From Eledone cirrhosa (lineage: Eukaryota), in assembly GCA_964016885.1 (NCBI GenBank), contig OZ024742.1, positions 192,076,001 through 192,140,000 of the forward strand: 64,000 bases of DNA, in the 5' to 3' direction. The translations under genes and the position numbers were made by a program. Below are positions 10,776 through 58,155 of the stretch, piece by piece (the first letter of the stretch is position 1; each line of letters opens with the position of its first letter). The notes beneath the pieces were generated by a model, which had not been told where the DNA came from, did no database searches, and was given only the letters and a program-made list of their open reading frames with translations.

Positions 10776-10776
<1 letters not shown>

Positions 10777-10897
10777 CGGGTTCGATCGGGATTAGTCCTG
10801 TAGAAGACATTTCTATATTAAACATTATATATATATATATATATATAATGTTTAATATAGAAATGTCTTCTACAGGACTAATCCCGATCGAACCCGA
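10776..10897. repeat. Perfect tail-to-tail palindrome of a family-A PLE fragment around (TA)n
   Basis: ~52-bp identical arms containing agtcctgtagaag (3' half of the family-A hammerhead). The flanks (GT)n and (AC)n are also mirrored. Confidence 0.8.
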
Positions 10898-25034: not shown

Positions 25035-25070
25035 TCTTAACGTTTCGGACGCTAGTCCTTCATCAGAAGA
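25035..25070 (-). ncRNA. Minimal (dimer-type) hammerhead ribozyme of the PLE pLTR
   Basis: tctt CTGATGA a ggac tagc gtcc GAAAC GTT aaga. The loop-less palindromic stem III is AACGTT. Confidence 0.8.
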
Positions 25071-25154
25071 AAGAATGAGAAATAACAAATAGATTGAGGG
25101 GACGGGTGGGAGAGAATTGGAAAAAAATGTCTTTAGATAAAATTAACAGGTCCA

Positions 25155-25208
<54 letters not shown>

Positions 25209-26099
25209 TATATACACAGTTCAAGAGTAACCAATCTTAAAGAGAGGGATGGAGATAGTAGAGTAGATATGATAGGAAAGATTGGTTAGTTAGTTAGAAG
25301 CCAAAGCGTAAAGGCATGTGCTCAATGTGCAATATGCAGTAGAAAGCAGCTAGGTGGCTGGGTTCATGCGGAGGTTAGGTGCGCAAAGCTGGAAATATTC
25401 ATTAGTTAAGCTAAACAAGACCACAAATTTCACAAGGAAGACATTATTAAAAGATTGTCAACATATTTTAGTTTGATGTAAGGAATGTAGAGAATAATAA
25501 TAATAATAATATTAATAATAATAATGTCCGTTTACAATTGTTTCGCTACTCCGTATAATATTTCTGGATCAGATGACTATGTATCATAATTAATCTGGTT
25601 CAGTTGAACATAATTAACATATTTTTAAAAAAAAACAGAGTGGCTCATCGGAACTCAAAGGAGTATAAATTAAAATAATGTTACATAATATAATGTTCCA
25701 TATATTAGTTTTTATTATGGTGCCTTGGTTGCATCAGCTGTCAGCCATAATCAAGCAGTACTCATCTGTCGAGGTTGCATTGTGTGAGATCTGCCTATGG
25801 GTAACAAGATGGCTGCCAAAGGGCATATTTACCTTACTAATTAGAGGGTGGTTTCAGGGGAAGTAACTTCTCGAGAGATTAGAGATTGTGTGTATTTTAT
25901 AGTTATGTGCTAGTATTTAAATTATTTAATTGAGAGACAATGAATGGGAGGTAACTTATAATTATCGAGTTGTTCTTAGCAATTTAACTTATTAGCTACA
26001 ATTAGAGATGGGGCTACATGACTAAGTTGGGTCAAAAACTCTATTGGCGAAGGAATTAGACCTTCGATGTTGACAGCTAATAGTTACCTCCGTTCTATC

Positions 26100-26913
26100 G
26101 TTAATTGGTAGAGGTCGTGATAGAGTTATGTAATATGCTTCCGTAACACAGAGATCACAAGATTTCCTTCGTCCATTGAACGGTTGGGCCCATAGCTACG
26201 ATATCCCATTTTAGTGAGTGTTGAACTTTGTTTAATTTAAGGCTTTTAATGAGCCTAGCTAGCGATGTCGAACATCTGTTGCTAGGGTCTCGGAAGGAAA
26301 AAGAGTGCGCGTTATAGCGTACCTTAAAAGGGTTAGAGGTAGGCCCGATATAAGAGCTGGTATTCGAAGCAGTCTCAACTGTGCACCTATAGACTATGTT
26401 GGGTGTCAGGCAGTGTCCATTTAATGGGCATGCACCGGGGTACCGGCAGTTGCAGTTGCTTCTGCGGTTAGTGAGAGTAGGGTTATTTAACCTAAGCAGT
26501 TGGTCCGTGCTAAAAGGATTAGATGGGGGAGGTGTGCTACTAGAGAAATAATTGGTGTAGTGGCGTGGTGTATTTGATAGGGGTGGTGGTACCGCGGTGT
26601 GAGAGTTATACTGTCTTAGCTTATGTTGGTTACTGAATGCGATGTGGCTAGCTAGGTTAGGTGTTGTGGAGAATGAGATTTTAATGTTGTTTTTATTAAA
26701 GAGTTTGTAATATCTATGGTTAGAGAGGAAGTGTTTGGATAGGATAGAGATGAAGCGATTGGGGATATTAGTGGCTAGATTAGATGAGAATGGTGGGTTA
26801 AGCCAGGTGATATTTCTAGGTCTATTCCTTCTAGGGGTTCTAGTGGAGTTGGTAGGGGCCTTCCTAGGATTATTATTACCTGGGGGTTTGTTATTTGTCA
26901 TCCCATTTCTCAT
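26100..26913 (-). pseudogene. PLE linker, Cys motif and GIY-YIG endonuclease (frameshifted)
   Basis: ITWLNPPFS, CNCRYPGACPLNGHC, IVYRC..YIGPT..FKVRYNAH. Confidence 0.9.
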
Positions 26914-27032
26914 TCCTATTCTAGGGTTGATTCTTCGTTTGCTACTAGGAGTGGGGAGGAGGCCGCTGCCACCATTAAAATTCTCTGTATAGGTGCTGTT
27001 ACTGCTAACATTCCGGCGAATCTGGCTATATG

Positions 27033-27580
27033 CTAAGGTATTTCTAGTTCTAGTGTTAAGTTTATTATGGTGAGTTGCTGTGATATGGCATTTTGGTATG
27101 TAATAAATTGATTGTTTATAACCAGATTCAGAGAAGCCTTATTATAATATTGTGCGTGGTTTATAAATATCTCTTCATTTGCTGATAGCATTGAGATCCT
27201 ATAGGAGATAGATTTGATTACTGCTCTGATGACTACCGGTGGGTGGTTAGAGTGAGGGCTAATATATGTGAGTATTTCGCCTGGTTTATGGTAAGGGTCA
27301 TAAAGGTTATTGTTGAGATCAAGGGTGACGTCTAGGAAGTTTACTACTTTATGGTTCAGCTCGATGGTGATAGAGAGACCGTTATTTTTGAAGAATCTAT
27401 GAAATTGTTTCTTAAGCAAATCGATTCCCCGATTAGTGCAATTGTGGACTGCAAATAGGGCGTCGTCCCTGTATATTCCACCTTGCATGGGTTGGATTTC
27501 GGCTGTGATGTTACGTAATAGGTAAATCCCAACTAAATCGGTGATTTGCGCGGAGTTACTTGAGTCCATCGTAATGTCAA
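27033..27580 (-). pseudogene. PLE reverse transcriptase, C-terminal motifs and thumb
   Basis: GIYRDDALF, VNFLDVTLDL, YHKP..YISPHSNHPP..SYRISMLS. Confidence 0.9.
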
Positions 27581-28425
27581 AAAACTAAAAATAAACAAAG
27601 TTCAACACTCACTAAAATGGGATATCGTAGCTAGGGCCCAACCGTTCAATGGACGAAGGAAATCTTGTGATCTCTGTGTTATGGAAGCATATTACATAAC
27701 TCTATCACGACCTCTACCAATTACCGATAGAACGGAGGTAACCATTAGCTGTCAACATCGAAGGGCTAATTCCTTCGCCAATAGAGTTTTTGACCCAACT
27801 TAGTCATGTAGCCCCATCTCTAATTGTAGCGAATAAGTTAAATTGCTATGAACAACTCGATAATTATAAGTTACCTCCCCTACATTGTCTCTCAATTAAA
27901 TAATTTAAATACTAGCACATAACTATAAAATACACACAATCTCTAATCTCTCGAGAAGTTACTTCCCCTGAAACCACCCTCTAATTAGTAAGGTAAATAT
28001 GCCCTTTGGCAGCTATCTTGTTACCCATAGGCAGATCTCACACAATGCAGCCTAGACAGATGAGTACTGCTTGATTATGGCTGACAGCTGATGCAACCAA
28101 GGCACCATAATAAAAACTAATATATGGAACATTATATTATGTAACATTATTTTAATTTATATTCCTTTGAGTTCCGATGAGCCACACTGTTTTTTTTTTT
28201 AAATATGTTAATTATTTTCAACTGAACCAGATCAATTATGATACATAGTCATCTGATCCAGAAATATTATACGAGTAGGGAAACAATTGTAAACAGACAT
28301 TATTATTATTAATATTATTATTATTATTATTCTCTACATTCCTTACATCAAACTAAAATATGTTGACAATCTTTTAATAATGTCTTCCTTGTGAAATTTG
28401 TTGTCTTGTTTTGCTTAACTAATGA

Positions 28426-28540
<115 letters not shown>

Positions 28541-29122
28541 TAAACATATATATATATTTATATATATATATATATATATATGTTTATGTATATATATATA
28601 TATATATATGAATGGACCTGTTAATTTTATCTAAAGACATTTTTTCCAATTCTATCCCGCCCGTGCCCTCAATCTATTTTTTATTTCTCATTCTTTATAT
28701 ATATATATATATAGAGAGAGAGAGATAAATCTACCAAAAGTTTACGGTAGTGTCCAATATATATATATTTGTATATATACATATACATAAACATATATAT
28801 TTTTTTATGTTGAGGTTGAGGTTGTCTTTTTCTGGGTATACTCTTTTACTCTTTTACCTGTTTCAGCCATCCGGCTGAGGCCATGCTGGGGCACCGTGTC
28901 AATATTTATTTATAAAACAAATCTGTATTTTATCTGATGAAAGCGCACCATAACCTACCTTGGTTGCCTTTGAAATATATATAATAAAATAATTATGGTT
29001 TTATAAATATAGTTTCCATTTATTAATATATTGTATATTTACTCCACTAAATTGTTGAGTGCTTTATATAAGTTATAAAAATGTTTAAGCTTGTTGAATC
29101 CCAACAAATTAAATATAACCTC

Positions 29123-37112: not shown

Positions 37113-37188
<76 letters not shown>

Positions 37189-37368
37189 ATACATTAACAG
37201 AGAAAGCCTTAAGCGATTCTCTGACCAACTCCATCTCACTCAACAAACATTAGGATATACCTAAGTATTCTCCCAATTTAGTGTTTGGGGTGCTAACTAA
37301 TCGGTATTTCGTGGATAGCTGGTTGTATTATGTTATATGAGACATAATTAAATAAATATATCTTTCCT

Positions 37369-37478
37369 TCCAGACGATCGTTTCGTTATAAGATTTCTAC
37401 AATTTGGGATCAATAATGTTCAGGTTATGCGGAAACTTGTCTTATACACAAGCGGGCACTTATAAACTCATCAGTGGA
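37369..37478 (-). ncRNA. Type I hammerhead with long stem II insertion, within PLE-type fragment 37184-~37730
   Basis: tcca CTGATGA gtttataag [~70 nt] cttataac GAAAC gatc GTC tgga. Confidence 0.8.
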
Positions 37479-37879
37479 TGCCAAAATAATATCGATATAA
37501 AAATTACATCGACATTAATAAATTAGTGATGGTCTCCTTCAGCGCTAAAGAGACTGCTAGATTCGAAAGGCCAGCAGTCCTTATAAAGATAAGATACACG
37601 CTGCCCCCAAGAAGGTAAGGGGATGTCATCTTAAAATATAAAACAATATACACGCTGGTCATTTAAACCTATTAGGTATTATAGCCACGGGTTTAAGAAC
37701 ACAATTGGATATTAAAAGAATGATTATATGTATACACAATCGATGCACACATAGAGATATTAAAATATAATAAATACATGTATGGACCACTCATATACAC
37801 ACATAGTTATTCTCTAAGGCTAAAAAATCAGACATGGGATATAAGGAAAATCAATCAGTATTTCATATAAGAAATAACA

Positions 37880-38184
37880 ATAATTGTTTCTACTTTTGGC
37901 ACAAGGCCAGCAATTATCCCAGTCTATTACTGTTACTTTATTTTATCGAGCCTGTAAGGATGAAAGGCAAATTTAACCTCGGTGGGATTTGAACTCAGAT
38001 CATAAAGGAAGGTAACTCTATGCTTCAAAGCATGGCGTCCGACCCTCTACCAAATACTGCCAATCCACCGCCCTGTAATTGTTTCTACTTTGGGGCACAA
38101 GGTCAGCAATTAACCAGTACATTACTGGTTCAATATTTCATCGACCCCGTAAGGATGAAATGCAAAGTTAACCTCGGCGGGATT
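37880..38184 (-). mobile_element. SINE family 1, tandem 1.5 copies
   Basis: Reverse-complement matches to 2533-2724. Confidence 0.8.
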
Positions 38185-38237
38185 AATAATAATAATAAAG
38201 AAAGTCATACCTTATATCTGGAAATTATATCTGGCCA

Positions 38238-38560
38238 CCAAGAGTATATATTTAATACATTAACAGAGAGAAAGCCTTAAGCGATACTCTGACCAACTCA
38301 ATCTCACTCAACAAACATTATATATATATATAAATAAACACGAGTGTGTATGATTGTGTATAGAAGATTATATTAATAAAAGGAATTCCAACTTTGTCTG
38401 ATTTACTCGTTTATTTACAATCCTTTAAAATTATAATATTATAATGAAATATTATGGTAGCATATTAAATGTTAAATGTTAATTGGACAAGTACTTTCAT
38501 GCTTTCGCAATCTTCAGGGTCATATTCAGTGGTGATAGTCAAGTTTGCAAATTTCAATGT

Positions 38561-38591
<31 letters not shown>

Positions 38592-38832
38592 GTGGTAGAA
38601 CACTGGAAGGTAATATCCATGGGACGAGTTAGGTAGAAGTGCTTACACAATAGTTAGTTCACCAAACCGAGAGCAATTGTTTACCCTTAGTGGATCCTCA
38701 CCTCGTAAATTACGTAGATTACGAGGTGAGGATCCGCTAAGGGTAAACAATTGTTCTCGGTATGGTGAACTAACTGTTGTGTAAGCACTTCTACCTAACT
38801 CGTCCCATGGATATTACCTTCCAGTGTTCTAC

Positions 38833-38926
<94 letters not shown>

Positions 38927-38939
38927 TATATGTATATAC

Positions 38940-39035
<96 letters not shown>

Positions 39036-39354
39036 GTATACATTGCAATTTTCAAACTTGACTATCACCACTGAATATGACCCTGAAGATTGCGAAAGCA
39101 TGAAAGTACTTGTCCAATTAACATTTAATATGCTACCATAATATTTCATTATAATATTATAATTTTAAAGGATTGTAAATAAACGAGTAAATCAGACAAA
39201 GTTGGAATTCCTTTTATTAATATAATCTTCTATACACAATCATACACACTCGTGTATATTTATATATATATATATAATGTTTGTTGAGTGAGATTGAGTT
39301 GGTCAGAGTATCGCTTAAGGCTTTCTCTGTTAATGTATTAAATATATACTCTTG
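38238..39354. repeat. 1.1-kb composite palindrome of three TA-separated PLE-type modules
   Basis: Mirror symmetry about ~38714. Hammerhead cores at 38485-38522 (-) and 39078-39115 (+). Degenerate cores flank the centre. Confidence 0.9.
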
Positions 39355-39391
39355 TATGTACGTATACATACTTATATATATATATATATAT

Positions 39392-39494
<103 letters not shown>

Positions 39495-39574
39495 CATATA
39501 TATATATATGTATATATATATATAAGTATGTATACGTACATAAATATATATGTATACAGACGTACAGTAGTATG

Positions 39575-39615
<41 letters not shown>

Positions 39616-39618
<3 letters not shown>

Positions 39619-40114
39619 AGTATGTATACGTACATACATATATGTATACAGACGTACAGTAGTATGTATATATATATACATACATGCACACATATATATA
39701 TGTACGTATGGATTCACCGAACATTTTTTATAATGCTCGGTGTGTTTGTAAACAAACATCCCGTATTAAGCCGTGGTGTCTAGTAACCATCGTTGCTCGT
39801 TTGTTCAACACTGACAAAGGAACACTGTACTAGTTTCAAGCGAATTAGCTATCGTCAGCAACGTATACCTTCCTGCCAGATGATTGAACCTCTGAAAGTA
39901 TATACTTTCCTTATGCATATTAACGGCTGAGCAGCCTAATTTGCATATCGAGTGGGTTAATCGGCCGGGTGCACCTAAAACGATAAACGGAAAAAATGAA
40001 ACGAAATTTCATTTCCCAATCTTAGTACGGCTGTTACTTAAATATAAGTATGTATACGTACATACATATATGTATATAGACGTACAGTATTATGTATATA
40101 TATATACATACATG

Positions 40115-40161
<47 letters not shown>

Positions 40162-40857
40162 GTATGGATTCACCGAATCCATTGCTAGACACTACGGCTT
40201 AATACGGGATGTTTGTTTACAAACACACCGAGCATTATAATAAATGTTCGGTGAATCCATACGTACATATATGTATGTGTGCATGTATGTATGTATATAT
40301 ATATATACATATATATATATATACATACTACTGTACGTCTGTATACATATATGTATGTACGTGTACATACTTATATTTAAGTAACAGCCGTACTAAGAGT
40401 GAGAAATAAAATTTCGTTTCATTTTTTTCGTTTATCGTTTTCGGTGCACCCGGCCGATTAACCCACTCGATATGCAAATTAGGCTGCTCAGCCGTTAATA
40501 TGCATAAGGAAAGTATATACTTTCAGACGTTCAATCATCTGGCAGGAAGGTATACGTTGCTGACGATAGCTAATAAGCTTGAAACTAATACAGCGTTCCT
40601 TTGTCAGTGTTGAACAAACGAGCAACGATGGTTGCTAGACACTACGGCTTAATACGGGATGTTTGTTTACAAACACACCGAGCATTATAATAAATGTTCG
40701 GTGAATCCATACGTACACATATATATGTGTGCATGTATGTATATATATATACTTACTGCTGTATGTCTGTATACATATAAGTATGTACGTATACATACTT
40801 ATATTTAAGTAACAGCCGTACTAAGAGTGGGAAATGAAATTTCATTTCATTTTTTCC

Positions 40858-40862
<5 letters not shown>
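39616..40862. mobile_element. Retrozyme-like ~450-bp tandem repeat with one hammerhead per unit, in two opposed arrays
   Basis: Period 450 (ttgctagacactacgg at 40182 and 40632) and 456 (cgtatggattcaccgaa at 39705 and 40161). Orientation flips at about 40180. No meaningful ORF. Confidence 0.75.
40555..40595 (+). ncRNA. Type I minimal hammerhead (second copy about 39824-39864 on minus)
   Basis: cgttg CTGACGA t agct aata agct t GAAAC ta ATA cagcg. The minus copy has GAAAC ta GTA with palindromic ACTAGT. Confidence 0.75.
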
Positions 40863-45922: not shown

Positions 45923-45944
45923 CACACATATATATAGAGAGAGT

Positions 45945-46163
45945 GAAGGCGTGTGGCTGAGTGGTTAGAGAATTGGATTCGCAATCGTAAGGTTGTGAGT
46001 TTGATTCCTGGACCAGGCGATGCGTTATGTCCTTGAGCAAGGCACTTTATTTCACGTTGCTTCTTCTACCTGGAGTTGCGACCGATAGATAGTATTAGCA
46101 ATTGGAAAGACCAACGGAAACATTGTTCCCTCGGTCCGATTTGACGAAAGTCGATCGTTCCTC
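45945..46163 (+). mobile_element. tRNA-derived SINE family 3
   Basis: A box tggctgagtgg, B-box-like gagtttgattcc. Near-identical inverted copy at 49038-49255. Confidence 0.85.
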
Positions 46164-46196
<33 letters not shown>

Positions 46197-46316
46197 CGTG
46201 TGTGCGTGTGTGTGAATATATACATATATAAATACATCTATTGAAACTTTCAGAAGATCCCGTTAAGGGTGAAAGCAGCGATTCTTTGCTTAAACTTTAA
46301 TCTGTTATTTTAATAA

Positions 46317-46353
<37 letters not shown>

Positions 46354-47007: not shown

Positions 47008-47422
47008 TAATAAAAGGAATTCCAACTTTGTCTGATTTACTCGTTTTATTTACAATCCTATAATGGTATTAGAATGAAATAGTATGGTAGAATATTAAAT
47101 GTTAAGAGTTAATTGAACAAGTACTTTCATGCTTTTACAATATTCAGGTTCATAATGTGTGGTGACAGTCAAGTTTGCAATTTTCAACTGTGTTGAAAAT
47201 TGCAAACTTGACTGTCACCACAGAATATGAACCTGAAGATTGCGAAAGCATGAAAGTACTTGTTCAATTAACACTTAACATTTAATATTCTACCATACTA
47301 TTTCATTCTAATACCATTATAAATTTTAAAGGATTGTAAATAAAACGAGTAAATCACACAAAGTTGGAATTCCTTTTATTAATATAATCTTCTATACACA
47401 ATCATACACACCCGTGTATATT
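47005..47422. mobile_element. Family D fold-back element (~185-bp arms, 3-bp spacer near 47190)
   Basis: Inverted arms. Same family as the middle module of the 38.2-39.35 kb palindrome. Confidence 0.85.
47228..47266 (+). ncRNA. Type I minimal hammerhead (family D)
   Basis: tgaac CTGAAGA t tgc gaaa gca t GAAAG ta CTT gttca. GNRA loop II, palindromic AAGTACTT. Confidence 0.85.
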
Positions 47423-49037: not shown

Positions 49038-49255
49038 AGGAACGATCGACTTTCGTCAAATCGGACCGAGGAAACAATGTTTCCGTTGGTCTTTCCAATT
49101 GCTAATACTATCTATCTGTCGCAACTCCAGGTAGAAGGAGCAACGTGAAATCAAGTGTCTTGCTCAAGGACGTAACGCATCGCCTGGTCCAGGAATCGAA
49201 CTCACAACCTCAAGATTGTGAATCCAATTCTCTAACCACTCAGCCACACGCCATC
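49038..49255 (-). mobile_element. SINE family 3
   Basis: Reverse complement of 45945-46163. Confidence 0.85.
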
Positions 49256-49294
49256 ACATGATATATAAAACTGCTGAAATAGTGTCTCTGCAAA

Positions 49295-51915
49295 CACTTT
49301 ATTTTATTTCCATTTATTTTTCTTTAAATAACATACATATAATACAAACATAATTTATGTAATAACAGACATACATATTAAACTACGAAACATTAATGAT
49401 ATTCTTATGATATAAATATAATATATATATAAAATTGTAATAGTACACCATGTAATATCATACACAATGATACATTATGAAAAATTACACCCTACGATGA
49501 TGAAGATGCATGATCAGGATATTCGATATAAAAACTTCATTGTTGTCAGCACCATTAACAACAATAATCATAGCAAAAACAACAATAATATAAATAACAA
49601 CAACCATAATAATGCTTTCTTTATTAACCACAAGGGTTGATATAAAGTATAACATTAAGGACAGCACAGGACGGTACAAATGGACATTTCTGTGTGTAAA
49701 GAAGAAAAAAACAATAACAAAGGAAATTACAAAAAAATGAAACAAAAGAGAATTCTCCAATAGAAGGGAGACTTCCGAGGGTGACTTGTGGAGAAAGCCC
49801 ATTAAAAACGCCACGGTGACCCTGATGACCAGGGCAAGTGCCCTCTCCCAGTTTTCCACCTCCAATCTACAGGCACATACTCAGAGAAGGCCCATTCACG
49901 CGGGCCATGCTTGCCTCTCTCACCCATCTTTCAACAAATTGCTGGGGAAAGAGCGCTTCCCTCTCCATCCTGATTTTACTAGAAATTTGAAAAAGTGAAT
50001 CAAGGCAACACCGAAGAGGTAAGTGCTCTTCTTCAGCCCTTTCAAACGCGTCCACCAAACGACCTCTTTCGCCATGGCCACCAGGCAGATAAAAAGTGCC
50101 TGCATTTCTCGGCTAAAGGAAGGCGGCGGGGAAATCCTCACGATGGTCTTAGTTGATAGTCGGATCCGTCCTACACGCGACAGCAGGTGTTCGACATAAA
50201 CCCACAAGTCAGTAATGCTCGGACACTGAACGAGTTTGTGCAGGACGGTTTCGTCGCCCTACGTGCATCTCGGACATGCTCGGCTGGCGGCACTTCCATG
50301 CCTATCGAGTTTATCCCGAACTGGCAAAGCTCCCCGGTAGCACTGCCAGGCCAGAGATTTCTAGAACTTATCCATGGGCCACGGCCCGAAAGTTCTCCCG
50401 AAGAGATTGGCTAGTTTATTTTCGTCGACGCCCAGAGTCTCCCCACCGATGTCGTCGGTCTTACCTTCCACTAACCCTATATAGAATGCTAAGGTGGAGT
50501 TTCCACTGATCGCATCACCCAACTAGTCGAGGGCTGTGAGTGCCTGAAGACATTCCAGTCTCCAAACGCTCGCTCTCGATCTTCGCTTGACCCAGGACAG
50601 CAGCTGCGTCAAGGAGACGAGCTGGACGGATACGTGTCTAGCAAAGGGCGACCACACCTGATCACCGCCAAGGAAGAGGTGGAGATGCGGTAGCCAGAGC
50701 GCTTGTTTGCACATCATCAGCCACGGCATGCCCGCCCCTTTACGTAGCGTCAGTTGACAGCAGATGGACCGCCTGGCCTTCCACAGAAAGCGAAAGAGCA
50801 AACGCTCCAGCACCATCAGGCGAGGCTTAGGACAGGCACGACGGTCAGGCGGTAGTAGATCATGGCGCAATGTATGCGTTCACCACCGATTGTCGACCCT
50901 ATCGAACTCTTTCGACTGAACTAAATTGATCAAAGACCTACCCGTGCCAGGTTCCCTAGCTACCCTCTCCATGATGTATCGCATGAGGTGGGGGTTGTCG
51001 TGGATGGATCTGTCTGAAATGGTGCATGACTGCGCCTCTCCCAACAGACCACCGACCACATGCAGCAACCTTCTTCTAGCAGGTTTGCCAAAATCTTGAA
51101 CTCTGCGTTTAGAAGAGTTATGGGTCTGACATTATCTATGTCATCCCCCTTGTTCGGGTCTTTTCTCAGCTGCGCCACCGCTCCTCGGCTCATAGAGCTG
51201 GGAATTCTCCCGTTCTGCTGCCAGTTGCAGTAGACGTCCACCAAGAGGTTGCCAAACAACTCTGGCATGTGTACGTAAAGCTCGTAGGGGAAACCATGTA
51301 AACGAAGCGATTTATCCATCAAGCAGTCTGTCATTGCTTCCCGTACTTTAGCGGCTGTTATCCGCTTTTCACAATACTCCGCCTCGGTGGCCCAGAGCTG
51401 CGGCAGTCCATCTAGGTAGGCACTAAAGTCCATCCTACGATCCGGCCCACCGCTGCCCTCGAACATCTTCACGAAGTGTCGCTGAAAAGCCACACGCATT
51501 ATCCCGGGCTCGACTAACATGCGCCCGTCATGGTCCTCCAAAGACCGGATCGTAGCTTTGTTGTCACGACCGCACCTCCACCACTCGGGCCCATTGAACG
51601 GCTTTCGTCCCCTCGTATCTCAGAGCACGCGCTATAGCTCTAACTGCGCAGCCTTCGTGCTTTGCGTTGAAGAATTGTTCGAGGGCCAATTTCGCCGCAA
51701 GCACGTCGATCACGTTGCCTTTACTAAGCTCCTCGTTTAGTTTTCTAACTAGTTCTTCCTCTGCTCTATTTTTCTCTATTGCTAACGCCTTACTAAACCT
51801 AATGGACTCTATTCCCATCGCCCTGTTCAGAGCGAACCACCATTTGTTGTTGACGACTGCCCTTATCAACGCCCGCTTAACTAGTTCGCTAATTCGGTCT
51901 CTGTAGGCTTTGCGC
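49295..51915 (-). mobile_element. 5'-truncated, internally deleted L1/Tx1-clade LINE
   Basis: ORF fragments align with ORF2 at 55.5-58.1 kb (NNKWW, WQQNGRIP, RPITLLNAEFKILA, GMPWLMM, RMEREAL). The RT core between LINLVQSKEFD and YYRL is missing near 50875. Confidence 0.9.
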
Positions 51916-52474
51916 GTTATATATAAACCCCCTAGTTGTTACGAAGCTCAGTGGGTGGTTTCTAATCTACTTGTGCACCACATTCTAGTTCTTGTACTCA
52001 GCAATCAATGAAGAGAAGAGAGGGAGTAGAGAGGGGGCTATAATGGTGACAGTTGTAGAGGTATGTGACATGTGATGTAGTATATAAATATATGCATATA
52101 CACCAGGACCGACCACTAAGGAACCGAACTCCCACTGTCACTGACATTGTGTCTGACATTTTGTCAGTCATATTTCAGTCTCCATACCTCTCCTCCATCA
52201 CGCTACGTATATCTCACAAGCTCTGCCTTCCCTTTAACTTTTATTTATAATTCCATTCTTTGAGTTTTGAAGTTGAGCTCTCCCAATCGTCTACCATTCT
52301 CACATCTTAATGGAAAAAAACCTTTAACATGATGAGTATATATTAATTGCAGCATCTATCGGTCTGTCTGTTTATTTATTTATTTACTTATTAATTTATT
52401 TATTTACCTATATGTCTATGTATCTCTCTGTCTGTCTGTGTGTCTGTCTGTGTATCTGTCTGCGTGTCTGTCCG

Positions 52475-52531
<57 letters not shown>

Positions 52532-52765
52532 TAATCTAGCTGTCGTCTGTTCTACAGCGTAGATGTAATTCACTTCGCGCAGAAGTGTTGTTCAAATTTA
52601 TTGCGGAAATTTTGTAAGTTCAATTTTAATTTTGATACTATTGTGTAGCTTGACTCCCCGTCTGAACTGTCAGGCGGTGGGTCAGCTCATCTTTACCCCT
52701 CCTAGGGGTGAAAACCTGTTTTTAAAAATTTTGTGGCATAAAAAAATTTCAATCGTCTGACAGAA

Positions 52766-54720
52766 ATGTTAAACGAAGCTAACAAAAATAGTGGTGGGGG
52801 ACAGCGGTAAGAGTTGTAAGCTCGCACGCTTTAGTCCCCCCTTCCTTCCCAACTAACGTCATAGAGAAGGAAGGAAAAAATAAAATAAAAACAGACGAAT
52901 CTGCGGAGAAGAATGACGAAAACAAAAATCTGGACATGGATTCCAACAACGAAAAAAAAAAATTTGAAAAATTGCATGACAATATTAATACCACAAACAA
53001 AGACACGACAAACACAAAAATAACATTTGAAAACAACATCATTAACATTTGAAAACAACATCATAACAGAAAGCAAAGCAGACGACAAAGTCAACACCAA
53101 TAAGATTTCATTTGCACAAACAACAAAGAAATCTTTGACATATATACCTGAAAATATTTCAGATGTGGCACAAAGAATTGCAGACGCCAAACAATATATA
53201 ACTGAAGGAGAGAATGGTATTTTATCGGTAAAAATGCCTCAAGAACTCACCAAAGACATTGAAAGTCGAATGGTCGTTTTCCGCACCATCAACAACATTT
53301 CTAAAAAACCTGAACAGCCAACTCAAACAGAAATCAAAACAGTACTTACAGAAGTACTTAATGAAACCACTCTCAGAAGAAAAGACAGACTGTATGGAAG
53401 CCTAGCGATTATTATGAAGAACGAATCGGCGGCAAAAAAATGTGCTTTGTCACCGATTCGTTCGAAAATGTTTACCTTTTATCCATCTTATATGGGTAAA
53501 AGAACTCAACGCATATGGCTGGATGCAATGATGCCAGATGTGGACTACTGCTGGCTCATAGCTGGCTTCATCGATCCAGCGAATGACAACGTGATTTCCA
53601 TTGGGAAAACCACAGGCAATGCGTTCAGTGGAACAGGTAGTGCAAATGAAGCCTGAACGCATCACCCAAATACCCGACAGAATCCTATTAGAGGGCCACG
53701 GGTATATAAACATTAGCGTGGAGGGGAGAAGGCCGTCCTGTCATATCTGTGCAGGCAGAGGGCACCTGAAGGCGGCTTGTCCCCAACTCAACAAAAAGAA
53801 AACCCTGCTACCAACACCAGCTCCACCACCACCACCACAATAGATAAACAAACAACAAAACTCAGTCCCACCCAACCCGTCCCTCAGTAAAACTACACCA
53901 CCACCACAACACAAACAGTCACAACACATTACCCCAAAACAAAATACAGGCCCACCCAACCCCTCACTCAATAAAACAACACAACCACCGCAGCCACAAC
54001 ACACAACACAGTCTAACATAGTGACATCCATCTCCCCCACAAAGAAAACCAACACGGAAACATTACCAGCAAACATACCTCTTCCCTCCAACACTGAAGA
54101 TAACCCAACGAATTCGGAGGAAGAAACGGAGTCCTTCAGACAGATTAAAAGGAAAAAAAGAAAACGTGCAAAACACACAAGGCCAAACAACCCCCACCCA
54201 AATGTCAACACAATCCAACAAAACACAAAACACCCCTCCAGCAACAAACAAAACCAAACCTGCCCCTCCCCTCTTCGAAACACTCACACCATCCGAAAAA
54301 AAAAGACATTACACTATACTTACATCAACAGAAACAATAATAAATTAAATGAACTCATAAACAATAATCCTTCGGTACAAACCGAAGGTGTAAACTTTGT
54401 TTCTTCAGAAAACTACCCACATTTAAAATTAATAAAGATCCCAATGAACCTCTACCAAAAACTAAAAAAGGATTTTAAGGAGGACGTAGGACCACCCTCT
54501 GTCAAACCCATAAACCGCGTCCTACTAAAAAGCTTTCCTCCTCCCCTTCCCCTCCCCAACACAACTCCAAACACCCCAACCCCACCACACACTGACGACC
54601 CCACACCACCACAAGACACCCCTTCACCCAACACCCCCCGACCCCATGGAAGTCGTGCGACCCGAACCCCGGGAAGCAGAAAGGTAGGTCTCTACACTCT
54701 CCTTTGGCTCTGCCGCCCAC
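52766..54720 (+). pseudogene. Tx1-type ORF1 (gag-like, zinc knuckle), disrupted
   Basis: CHICAGRGHLKAAC and a Pro/Thr/Asn-rich tail. Lesions: 22-bp tandem duplication near 53022-53065, frameshift near 53635, stop at 53841. Confidence 0.75.
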
Positions 54721-57700
54721 ATGGATGTGTTAAGAGTAGGATGTTTGAATGCACGTGGCCTGGGCTCAACTTGGAAGCAAGCAAAGCTTCTAAATGACCT
54801 CAGGTCATGTGGTATAAATGTAATGGTTATCTGTGAGACTCGGATCAGCGTCGTGCGGCAGCTGGCCCCTACCTTCGATGACTTTGAGGTGCATGCATCT
54901 CTCTGTCAACCTGGAGGTGGGGGTGGGGTTGTCGTACTGCTGCAAAAACACCTGGGTCTTGCCGTACAGGTTGTTCACTCGGACCCGGAGGGTCGTTTGT
55001 TGGTACTAGACGTTGGCAGTAGTGAAGGTGCGGCCTTGAGACTGGTCGCCGTCTACTCCCCTTTCGGAGCTGAACGGCCCGACTTCTTCCAGCGTTTGGA
55101 GATTTTTCTGGGAACGTCGCGTTCCCTGCTTCTAGCGGGGGATTGGAATGACATCCTAGATGCACGTTGGGACTATGCAGGAGCATGTCCTAATAGAGGG
55201 GTGTAACAGCCTCAAGGGGTTACTCAACCGTTTTAACTTGGTCGATAGATATCGACTAGATTTTCCAACTGTGCCTACCTGGACTTGGACGAACCATAGT
55301 GGTCAATCTAGATCGTACTTAGATAGATTCTTAGTTATAAGTAAGGATAGGGACATATTAAGCTGTCCAGAAATGCGCACGGTTGGCTATACGGATCACA
55401 AATTAGTGACCTGCGTAATCAATCTCGAGAAAACACGTAAACAGGGTCCCGGTTACTGGAAACGTAATTTGTCTTTACCGGCAAAAGAGACTTACAGAAA
55501 CCGGATTAGCAGATTAGTTAAGGAGAGGTTGACGGGTGCAATCGTCAACAACCGATGGTGGGCATCTCTCAAAAGAGAGATTAGAACAGAATCAATAAGT
55601 TATAGCAAGATGTTAGCTGCCGATAGGAATAGAAACGAGAAAGAATTAACAGGTAAATTAGAAGAGGCAATCAAGAGCGAAAATGTGGTCAGCGTGCTGG
55701 CATCGAGGACGGCATTGAACCAGTTTTTCGATGCAAAGCACGAAGGCTGCGTCATTCGAAGTAAAATACGTGCTCTAGGTAATGAGGGGGCCAAAGCCGT
55801 TGGCTGGGCCCGCGTGACAGAAGCTAAGAGTAGAAATCGATCCACCATCCGGTCGTTGCAAGACGAGGATGGACGGGTGATCCGGGAGCCTAAGCAGATG
55901 TGCGAGGCCTTTCAAAGGCACTTTGCCCGATTATTCGGGGGAGGCGAGGGTCCGGGCGGGGACGTGAATTTCGGTCCATACGACGACGGCCTGCCGCGTC
56001 TCTCGAGTGAAGAGGCAGAGTCCTGCGAGGGACCAATCTCGGCTGATGAGATCGGGGATGCGCTGAGCCAATGCAGCAGACGCAAATCTCCAGGTCTCGA
56101 TGGTATACCTTACGAACTTTATTTAGCAATGCCGGTCATCTTCTCCGAACTCCTCGAAGCGGTCTACTGCAATTGGCAGCAGAACGGGAGAATTCCTTGT
56201 TCTGTAGCCAAGGGCGTAGTCTCGCTGGTGAGGAAGGACGAGAACAAGGGGGATAGTATAAATAATGTTCGGCCCATAACCCTACTAAACACAGAGTTAA
56301 AGATTTTGGCCAAGGTGTTAGCAAAGAGGTTGGCGCTTGTCGTGGGTAGCCTGGTGGGAGATGCGCAGACATGTGCTATCCCATCCAGGTCCATTCACGA
56401 TAACCTCCACCTCATGCGATACATCATAGAGAGGGTTGGCAACAAACCCGGCTTCGGTGGGGCCCTGATCAACTTGGATCAGTCTAAGGCCTTCGATAGG
56501 ATCGACCATGGTTACCTGGATGTGGTGCTAGCGGCGGCTGGGTTCGGTCCTGTTTTCAGAGGCTGGATCACTGCCTTACATAGCAACCACATCTGTTCTA
56601 GGATCAAGGTAAACGGCTACCTTTCGAAGCCGTTCGAAATCACACGATCCATTCGACAGGGGTGCCCTCTCTCCTCCCTTCTGTACGTATTGACTCTCGA
56701 GCCTTTACTGAGGAAGTTGGAGTTGTTGCAGGGTATCCCCCTGGAACCAGGATTGAGCAAAGCGGTGTCCGCCTACGCCGATGACGTAACAGTAATGGTA
56801 TCGACCGACTCGGAGATCGAGGCGATCGGTACCTTACTGGAGGATTACGAAAGGTTGTCAGGAGCGAAACTGAACCGGGAAAAATCCATCGGGCTGCAAC
56901 TCGGAACGTGGAGAGGCAGACCGATGCCTCCCGACGGTGTCGTCGGACACTGGACGGAGGGCCCGGTAAAGTTGCTTGGGGTCTGGTTTGGACCGGACCT
57001 CCAGGTGGAAAAGAACTGGGACGAGGTTACGAACAAGGTGTTTGCACTAACCCAGAGATGGGCCAAGTGTAAGCTGTCCCTAAAAGGCCGGGCGGAGGTG
57101 GCGAACATTTACATAGCGTCCGTCACTTACTACCGCCTGACTGTCGTGCCTTGCCCTAAGGAAACACTCACCAGCATGGAACGCATGCTCTTCCAATTTC
57201 TTTGGAAGAAGCGCCCTCCTATGGTGAGAAGATCCATCTGCTGCCAACAACCTTCGAAAGGAGGGCTGGGGATGCCGTGGTTGATGATGCGTAGGCACGC
57301 ATTAAGGCTACGGCACCTACAGGTATTCCTCACTGGTCAACCGGTGTGGGCTCCGTTCGTGAAACGAGCCTTTCCGAGACTCGTCTCGCTCACCGAGCTG
57401 CAGTCCTGGGTCAAGCAAAGATCCGGAAAACTGGGAGACTGGCACACTGAGTGCGCTCAGGCGCTCAGGGCTCTCTGGCAAGCGGGCCAGGCCATCGGTG
57501 GAGAATCCACCTCATCGTTCTATAGAGGGCTGGTGGCTAACAGGGGCGATGACACCCTTGGAGAGTCGCTGGACATGGAAGAGGACGAAATGGCCAGCCT
57601 GTTCGGTAGGACTTTCGGCCCGGGACCAATGGACAACTTCCAGAAGTCACTAGCCTGGCAGTGCTACCGGGGGCTCTACCCGTTCGAGAGAGGCTCTACA

Positions 57701-58155
57701 GACACGGGCGCCCGGGCAGGGATCCCTCGAAAAAGATTTGCCCTAGATGCGTGCGTCACGAAGAAACCGTTGCGCACGCATTGGTGCAATGTCCGGGCGT
57801 GGCTGATCTGTGGGGCTACGCCGAACGACTGCTGTCGCGGGTGGCGCCGATTCGATTGACCGCCGAGTCCGTGATGACAATCAAACCGCCTCCCCTCTTC
57901 ACAAAGGAAGCGAAGGCGGTTTTTCTGTGCGTAATAGCCATGTTGAAAGAGGTTGTTTGGTGGACACGATTGAAAGATCTGAGGTCAGGCAACTTCCTCT
58001 CTGGCCATAGTCTGGTCTACTTCTTCCGATATCACTTCGGAAGAAGGATAAGAATGGAGAGAGAGGTGCTTGGCCACAGCCAGTTTTATGAAAGGTGGGT
58101 GATAGTGGCTAGAATGGCTCGTGTAAATGGGCCTTCTCTGTATACCATCCTGTAG
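54721..58155 (+). pseudogene. Tx1-type ORF2 (APE endonuclease, reverse transcriptase, CCHC-like domain) with two frameshifts
   Basis: CLNARGL, ICETR, AGDWN, SYLDR, TDH; SPGLDG, RPITLLN, LDQSKAFD, RQGCPLS, YADD; CPRC..ETVAHALVQC. Frameshifts near 55200 and 57670. Confidence 0.92.

Follow-up and report, generated by a model that had tools for sequence, protein, structure and literature searches.

Penelope-like elements (PLEs) of the Hydra clade are marked by a CxCX5C motif together with targeting of (TA)n, and the accessible part of Craig 2021 (PMC8557442) also describes inverted truncated partners and a 30–40-bp tail, often at a single end. In the available text of Frangieh 2024, the tail is tied to two reverse-transcription start sites. 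The minimal hammerhead is described in the accessible part of Cervera and de la Pena 2014 (PMC4209133), and PLEs can hold foreign DNA between their pLTRs according to the available text of Arkhipova 2013 (PMC3846280). Inverted duplications also arise at DNA breaks: the accessible text of Yu 2024 (PMC11724301) reports yeast fold-back inversions of up to ~150 bp closed by ~2-nt microhomology, and that of PMC11702581 reports local inverted duplications and templated insertions at LINE-1 breaks.

The stretch of DNA analysed here (64,000 nt; hereafter the window) is dense in repeats and rich in (TA)n; it is of animal type, putatively octopus-like, with many short head-to-head palindromes and several minimal hammerheads with palindromic loops. 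At 38239–39354 it carries a palindrome of approximately 1.1 kb, of the order A-B-C|C'-B'-A', whose parts are worn ends of three high-copy families. An earlier note had read the order as A-(TA)-B-(TA)-C|C'-(TA)-B'-(TA)-A' and the unique parts as nearly identical; our arm alignments confirm the order, the coordinates and the likeness. A (38239–38319) and A' (39276–39354) are identical at 79/79 aligned bases with one 2-nt indel. B (38333–38564) and B' (39036–39260) have 222 matches, 3 mismatches and one 7-nt indel, and C (38592–38713) and C' (38714–38838) have 116 matches, 4 mismatches and 2 more at the apex. We consider it probable that an aged stack of three elements was duplicated inversely, once, by one or other of the two routes weighed below.

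The left arm begins with 6 bp of non-A flank and the short TA target of A (38239–38251, mirrored at 39342–39354), followed by a truncated family A end (38252–38319, minus strand) with a 2-nt slip confined to this arm. A (TA)n spacer (38320–38332), 2 nt shorter than its mirror, leads to B (38333–38556, minus), an end of family D/B with an optional tail at 38333–38373, and a second (TA)n spacer (38557–38591) to C (38592–38708, minus), a family C end with its tail. C holds four arm-specific substitutions, polarized directly for two and by inference for two. The sequence at the apex (38709–38717) is a 9-nt filler that repeats adjoining bases. The right arm consists of C' (38718–38835, plus; tail 38794–38835), a (TA)n spacer with repeated interruption units (38836–39043), B' (39044–39260, plus), with a private 7-nt deletion and a private 7-nt micro-inversion (parsed against the D palindrome described below), and A' with its TA target and the mirrored 6-bp flank (39276–39354, plus). 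The TA spacers had been said to differ greatly between arms; this is so for the B–C spacer (35 versus 208 nt), but the A–B spacers differ by 2 nt. The 35 versus 208 nt difference could have arisen either during the event or by later slippage.

A, B and C are putatively the ends of Penelope-like elements, an assignment made for B and C from the hammerhead and the tail. A differs from the TA-adjacent end of the element at 37179–37252 by 2 substitutions and one 2-nt indel. The earlier identification of A with the terminus of this 37.2-kb element thus stands; that the terminus is a 3' end is inferred from the shared terminus and its abutment on TA. A hammerhead search of the 37.2-kb element gave partial core matches only (37181–37880). 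Between 37186 and 38713, seven pieces (the 37.2-kb element, two SINE-like copies, a flank repeat, A, B and C) appear to be co-oriented, the polarity of several of them being presumed.

The likeness of B to the right arm of a single-family palindrome, D (47.0–47.4 kb), amounts to 93% and stops within 1–2 nt of the apex of D, as expected from the claim that both are truncated at nearly the same base. Membership of B in family D is likewise upheld, but the hammerhead that B was said to carry is broken, with helix I disrupted in both arms; the motif scan therefore detects the hammerhead of D (47228–47266, intact) and misses that of B. The minimal hammerhead of B lies at 38484–38522 (minus) and its broken partner in B' at 39078–39116 (plus). 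The degenerate hammerhead of C had been written correctly for the right arm (38722–38759, plus); its core positions C3 (38726) and G12 (38744) are altered in both arms, and the majority letters of family C would restore both. B and C thus have minimal type I hammerheads of the Penelope type, with a palindromic loop III, broken in all four copies within the palindrome and intact in D, and both are predicted to be inactive. RNA folds of the four hammerhead regions were no better than those of shuffled sequences, and helix I folds only in D. No Rfam hammerhead family was found among the 150 of 284 matches listed, all of which were below the gathering score and nearly all microRNA models on simple repeats. 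Another family, at 1846–1980 and 46236–46320, has two copies that, like B and D, turn or stop at one shared point just upstream of a hammerhead-like motif.

Family data were obtained from 4 of 23 listed sequencing runs, aligned at 85% likeness to 38186–38838, a span that comprises the left flank, the left arm and C'. The best share of the region's words in any run was 0.44 (run X1), and the runs may represent another population or species. No RNA run was among the 23 listed. Summed depth in X1 peaked at ~37,000 for A, ~890,000 for B and ~1,030,000 for C, values that are depths and not copy numbers. Families B and C have alternative termini 30–40 nt apart, with the tail present or absent: tail-less ends on (TA)n fall at 38369 for B (28 X1 contigs), versus 38333 in the palindrome, and at 38793 for C (34 X1 contigs and 1112 reads of run X21), versus 38835. 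Upstream of 38718, family C runs on differently (27 X1 contigs; 2271 X21 reads). Records of family C elsewhere turn round between 38637–38672 and 38711–38761, and the palindrome apex falls in that zone.

Ten letters are common to both arms and absent from 97.4–99.98% of the X1 family depth and 91–99% of the X21 reads: one in A (38300), five in B (38452, 38461, 38486, 38519 and 38536) and four in C (38726, 38743, 38744 and 38785). The count omits the family-polymorphic sites 38276, 38290, 38343, 38442, 38476, 38525, 38527 and 38528, and was made among the 40 of 94 rows listed. At all six rare sites of A and B, the majority letter is present in the two other copies from the window, namely D and the 37.2-kb element. 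Five of the ten (38486, 38519, 38726, 38743 and 38744) lie within the two hammerheads, where two disrupt helix I of that of B and two alter C3 and G12 of that of C. Consequently, A, B and C appear to have been already aged when the arms arose. In X1, the share of the depth that shows the rare letters does not exceed 0.09% for A and 0.02% for B, so that an amplified composite is not visible there.

Palindrome D (47008–47422) served as a control for a single-family palindrome. It has a tail on one arm, no visible shared rare letter (two sites being ambiguous) and eight arm-specific events. Compared with D, the 10 shared and 9 arm-specific changes of A, B and C give a Fisher p of 0.012, or 0.13 if the two ambiguous sites of D are counted against the contrast; for B alone, p rises in the same way from 0.03 to 0.17. 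Both arms carry the tail in B and in C (0/2 unequal), compared with ends unequal by at least 18 nt in 10/10 single-family palindromes (Fisher p 0.015). This test covered 10 of the 17 other inverted pairs, with 7 tail-to-tail or widely separated pairs excluded; two of the ten lack a TA-flush end, and in 8/10 a TA run lies no more than 6 nt from one of the ends. Changes made after copying amount to ~9 events, distributed as 1/80 (A), 4/225 (B) and 4/115 (C), which is compatible with a single age (chi-square p 0.49). Substitutions alone make C more diverged than A and B together (4/115 versus 2/304, p 0.05), the opposite of what nesting predicts, and a two-step history is possible on this account. 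The inner arms are not the most alike, contrary to what nesting requires. The excess of later changes in the left arm (7 versus 2) was not significant (p 0.18). The arms of D differ at two neighbouring sites, equivalent to 38525 and 38527, where its left arm has common family letters (in X1, 23% and 12% by depth; in X21, 45% and 37% by reads); palindromes born at insertion may therefore stem from two RNA templates rather than from fold-back. D and other inserts are enclosed by an inverted 220-nt pair (45943–46162 and 49038–49257, 95% alike, 2.9 kb apart), which we take to be a tRNA-like head joined to a TA-abutting tail.

The arms of the palindrome overrun the TA target of A by 6 bp of non-A sequence (chance ~1.3e-4), and this 6-bp edge with the TA target is not present in the 37.2-kb copy of A. 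The flank on the left (38186–38238, minus; 17 X1 contigs) is unduplicated, a short piece of a further repeat that terminates in (TTA)n on the minus strand, 39 nt separating the (TTA)n from the palindrome edge; no second copy was found within the window, and a metagenome scan gave 0 matches. Raw-read depth drops from 328 to 90 across the bin 38239–38251, as expected if family A reads end at TA. On the right, the 27-nt junction piece (39353–39379, plus) overlaps the palindrome by 2 nt and is identical, with 0 mismatches, to the reverse complement of 39612–39638, where the neighbouring element E, which has a hammerhead, ends next to TA; other E termini differ from it by 1–2 mismatches. No flush target duplication was found at the outer ends. 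Three consecutive TA units were not found within 877 nt to the left or 18 nt to the right; a larger insert may begin further left than the palindrome edge.

These features can be accommodated by a single inverted copy of the aged C-B-A stack, made in place by fold-back at a DNA end in C, to which we give about even chances. C, B and A would have inserted side by side at a (TA)n tract and then aged. A break 8 nt upstream of the C hammerhead would have been followed by snap-back, leaving the 9-nt filler, and by synthesis of ~525 nt on its own strand through C, B, A and the flank. A switch by 2-nt microhomology to the terminus of element E and rejoining in self-complementary (TA)n would have completed the event. 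The cause of the break is a guess; a Penelope-type endonuclease or a (TA)n cruciform are candidates. In favour of copying in place are the apex filler, the 2-nt microhomology with its exact 27-nt local template, and the lack of both a target duplication and a left TA. Marks of fold-back inverted duplications are present, namely a hairpin apex, adjacent DNA copied inversely and microhomology at the distal join. The ~525 nt copied here, however, exceed the yeast events. The position of the apex in the turn-round zone of family C hints at the element's own machinery. In size, the 39 nt left unpaired in the left flank correspond to a one-sided tail, and the outer ends of the composite are unequal, as they are in palindromes born at insertion.

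A second composite inverse duplication, which we count in favour of the in-place route, is found at 10776–10897, where perfect 47-nt arms face each other across (TA)n, tail to tail, each comprising ~30 nt of the 20981/29176 family, 18 nt from outside the element and a CA/TG flank. Mirrored flanks occur at 2/40 TA tracts with complex flanks versus 0.25 expected (p 0.023); the excess across all tracts (14/120 versus 6.6) was set aside as inflated by low-complexity, non-independent flanks. A history in which a C|C' hairpin came first and only later prompted the copying of B and A is weakened by the four rare letters common to C and C' and by a single age not being rejected. A single PLE insert born as a palindrome would have arms that copy the active families and an outer target duplication or (TA)n; the arms instead share the ten rare letters, and neither outer feature was found. 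A non-LTR retrozyme, with tandem units and complete hammerheads, was rejected, as A, B and C were not found in tandem inside the palindrome. The (TA)n target had been expected to multiply in the event: in copy number this is trivially true, two spacers having become four.

The shared rare letters and two-sided tails bear out the suggestion of the earlier note that stacked ends were inversely duplicated once, and not truly nested. They are accounted for equally well by the other route to such a copy, in which a Penelope-like protein reverse-transcribed a read-through RNA of the aged stack, the end of the cDNA in C folded back and insertion of the entire palindrome followed. With its internal hammerheads dead, this RNA would have stayed in one piece, and it is in the two hammerheads that 5/10 of the shared rare letters lie. 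The window abounds in single-family head-to-head palindromes and contains a Hydra-type element, the apex falls where family C turns round, the 39-nt unpaired left flank matches the 30–40-bp tail in the accessible parts of Craig 2021 and Frangieh 2024, and the available text of Arkhipova 2013 describes foreign DNA captured between pLTRs. Against these stand the missing target duplication, a left edge without (TA)n (compared with 8/10 single-family palindromes flush with a TA run), a right end that is a locally templated piece, rare-letter shares in X1 (at most 0.09% for A and 0.02% for B) that give no sign of an amplified composite, and an A–B junction reproduced by none of the 14 joints or 12 of 15 inserts listed. 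We regard the RNA route as possible but rather unlikely. The earlier note had offered retro-copying of this kind or inverse duplication of flanking target DNA during insertion; the second, as duplication in place, fits the junctions better, although not as a by-product of a fresh insertion of C, which is disfavoured because C was already mutated in both arms.

Palindromes nested stepwise at TA apexes could also have been made alike by later arm-to-arm gene conversion. B ends at the same base as the apex of D, which suggests that B once had its own inverted partner, and the window holds an apparent case of true nesting, element X enclosing a Penelope-like palindrome across (TA)n. Conversion would nevertheless have had to add both tails and the 6-bp flank, which makes it equal to one copying event, and no homogenization is seen in D (0 visible shared letters, two sites ambiguous, 8 arm-specific events); such a history is improbable. 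Three fresh palindromic insertions of A, B and C, each into the previous TA apex with no later copying, would fit the look of the structure, and the inner ends of A and B would make TA-containing apexes. Three independent templates with rare, partly ribozyme-breaking letters would then be needed (the product of the upper-bound shares is 4e-10, a guide only as templates are not random draws), and the tails on both arms and inner arms that are not the most alike would be left unexplained. The rare letters, two-sided tails and arm ages together lead us to reject this reading as extremely improbable; they contradict it unless subfamilies with exactly these letters exist in the genome but are absent from the four runs. 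A fold-back read chimera or assembly artefact appears very improbable. No record spanning the locus or carrying its letters occurs among the listed 24 of 4173 pieces, and at 38226 the letter of the window is in no aligned contig (1572.5/1572.5 of the depth differs). The evidence against an artefact comes from the types of difference between the arms and from their polarity, which sustain the earlier argument that arm mismatches speak against a chimera: the arms differ by substitutions, a direct-repeat deletion, a micro-inversion and 35 versus 208 nt of TA, and the right arm of C retains the family letter where the arms differ, so that it did not arise by decay of a copy of the left arm. Arm divergence of 3–15% is, moreover, seen in many other palindromes of the window.

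A Hydra-type element is present elsewhere in the window as a broken Penelope-like element (25216–28428, minus) with reverse transcriptase (RT) motifs, a CxCX5C linker and GIY-YIG-like motifs. At 25.2–28.4 kb it has 852-nt inverted arms between (TA)n tracts. The CxCX5C motif is at residue 229 of a 327-aa frame, before the C-terminal GIY-YIG-like domain, and this linker and the (TA)n target putatively place the element in the Hydra clade of PLEs. No DNA likeness was found between it and A, B or C. Neither Pfam searches of the two PLE frames and of 8 among 150 listed relatives nor a PDB search of the RT frame gave anything useful; a word-indexed search of longer proteins found 0 matches among 1702 candidates, and an unindexed protein search gave 4706 relatives. 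Element X (25071–25157) and its inverted partner (86 nt, 28610–28695) enclose the Hydra-type element across (TA)n in what looks like true nesting at a TA apex, with a hammerhead of X on the minus strand near 25035–25075. Element E (39525–40860) is retrozyme-like, with a unit of ~430 nt and a hammerhead at 39864–39822 (minus); it lies in partial tandem in each arm of a palindrome whose arms are unequal, and a 50-nt duplicate of its terminus lies at 39525–39574. A long RT-bearing LINE-like element (Pfam RVT_1) occupies 54.7–58.2 kb on the plus strand, and a decayed relative, 66% alike and in opposite orientation, lies at 49.9–51.9 kb (region 49882–58155).

The single locus is a neutral rearrangement in a repeat thicket, for which we propose no function, and if copied in place by fold-back it is a local accident and does not represent a novel type of element. 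Letters that are rare yet shared, together with tails on both sides, tell insertion-born palindromes from those copied later and can be applied genome-wide. Should late inverse duplication at (TA)n stacks prove frequent, palindromes and TA tracts in such genomes would have an unrecognized source; the existence of source loci elsewhere would indicate cross-family transduction by Penelope-like elements. It is also conceivable, although unlikely, that Penelope-like machinery writes read-through RNAs over ribozyme-dead neighbours of other families back as composite palindromes. Families would then be shuffled into new units and (TA)n landing sites doubled each time, a feedback that could help to build TA-rich genomes.

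No multi-family palindromes of this sort were found in the full-text literature, most subscription papers being outside its scope. The head-to-head PLE insertions in the accessible parts of PMC8557442 and PMC3846280 resemble the palindrome in their joined truncated ends, (TA)n targets, hammerheads near the join and a 30–40-nt tail that is optional in families B and C; they differ from it in that each of its arms takes in three families, two TA spacers and flank, the mutations common to both arms are aged, the tail is on both arms and there is no target duplication. Metazoan PLE and non-LTR retrozyme hammerheads (PMC4209133; Li 2026, bioRxiv 10.64898/2026.07.22.740005), as far as the available texts describe them, have the same core boxes, short helix I, palindromic loop III and unpaired base before helix II, whereas the four copies here are all broken and form no tandem array. 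Fold-back inverted duplications at breaks (PMC11724301; Al-Zain 2023, PMC10622511) have, in the accessible parts of these papers, the same hairpin-started local inverted copy and 2-nt microhomology at the second junction; the palindrome, in an animal assembly, is unlike them in its length (~525 nt versus up to ~150 bp) and extra templated piece. Inverted duplications at LINE-1 breaks (PMC11702581, available text) share the retroelement-rich site, the inverse genomic duplication and the templated insert, but the palindrome has neither poly(A) nor L1. Thus, the parts and the type of rearrangement are already known, and this instance is unusual for spanning three families.
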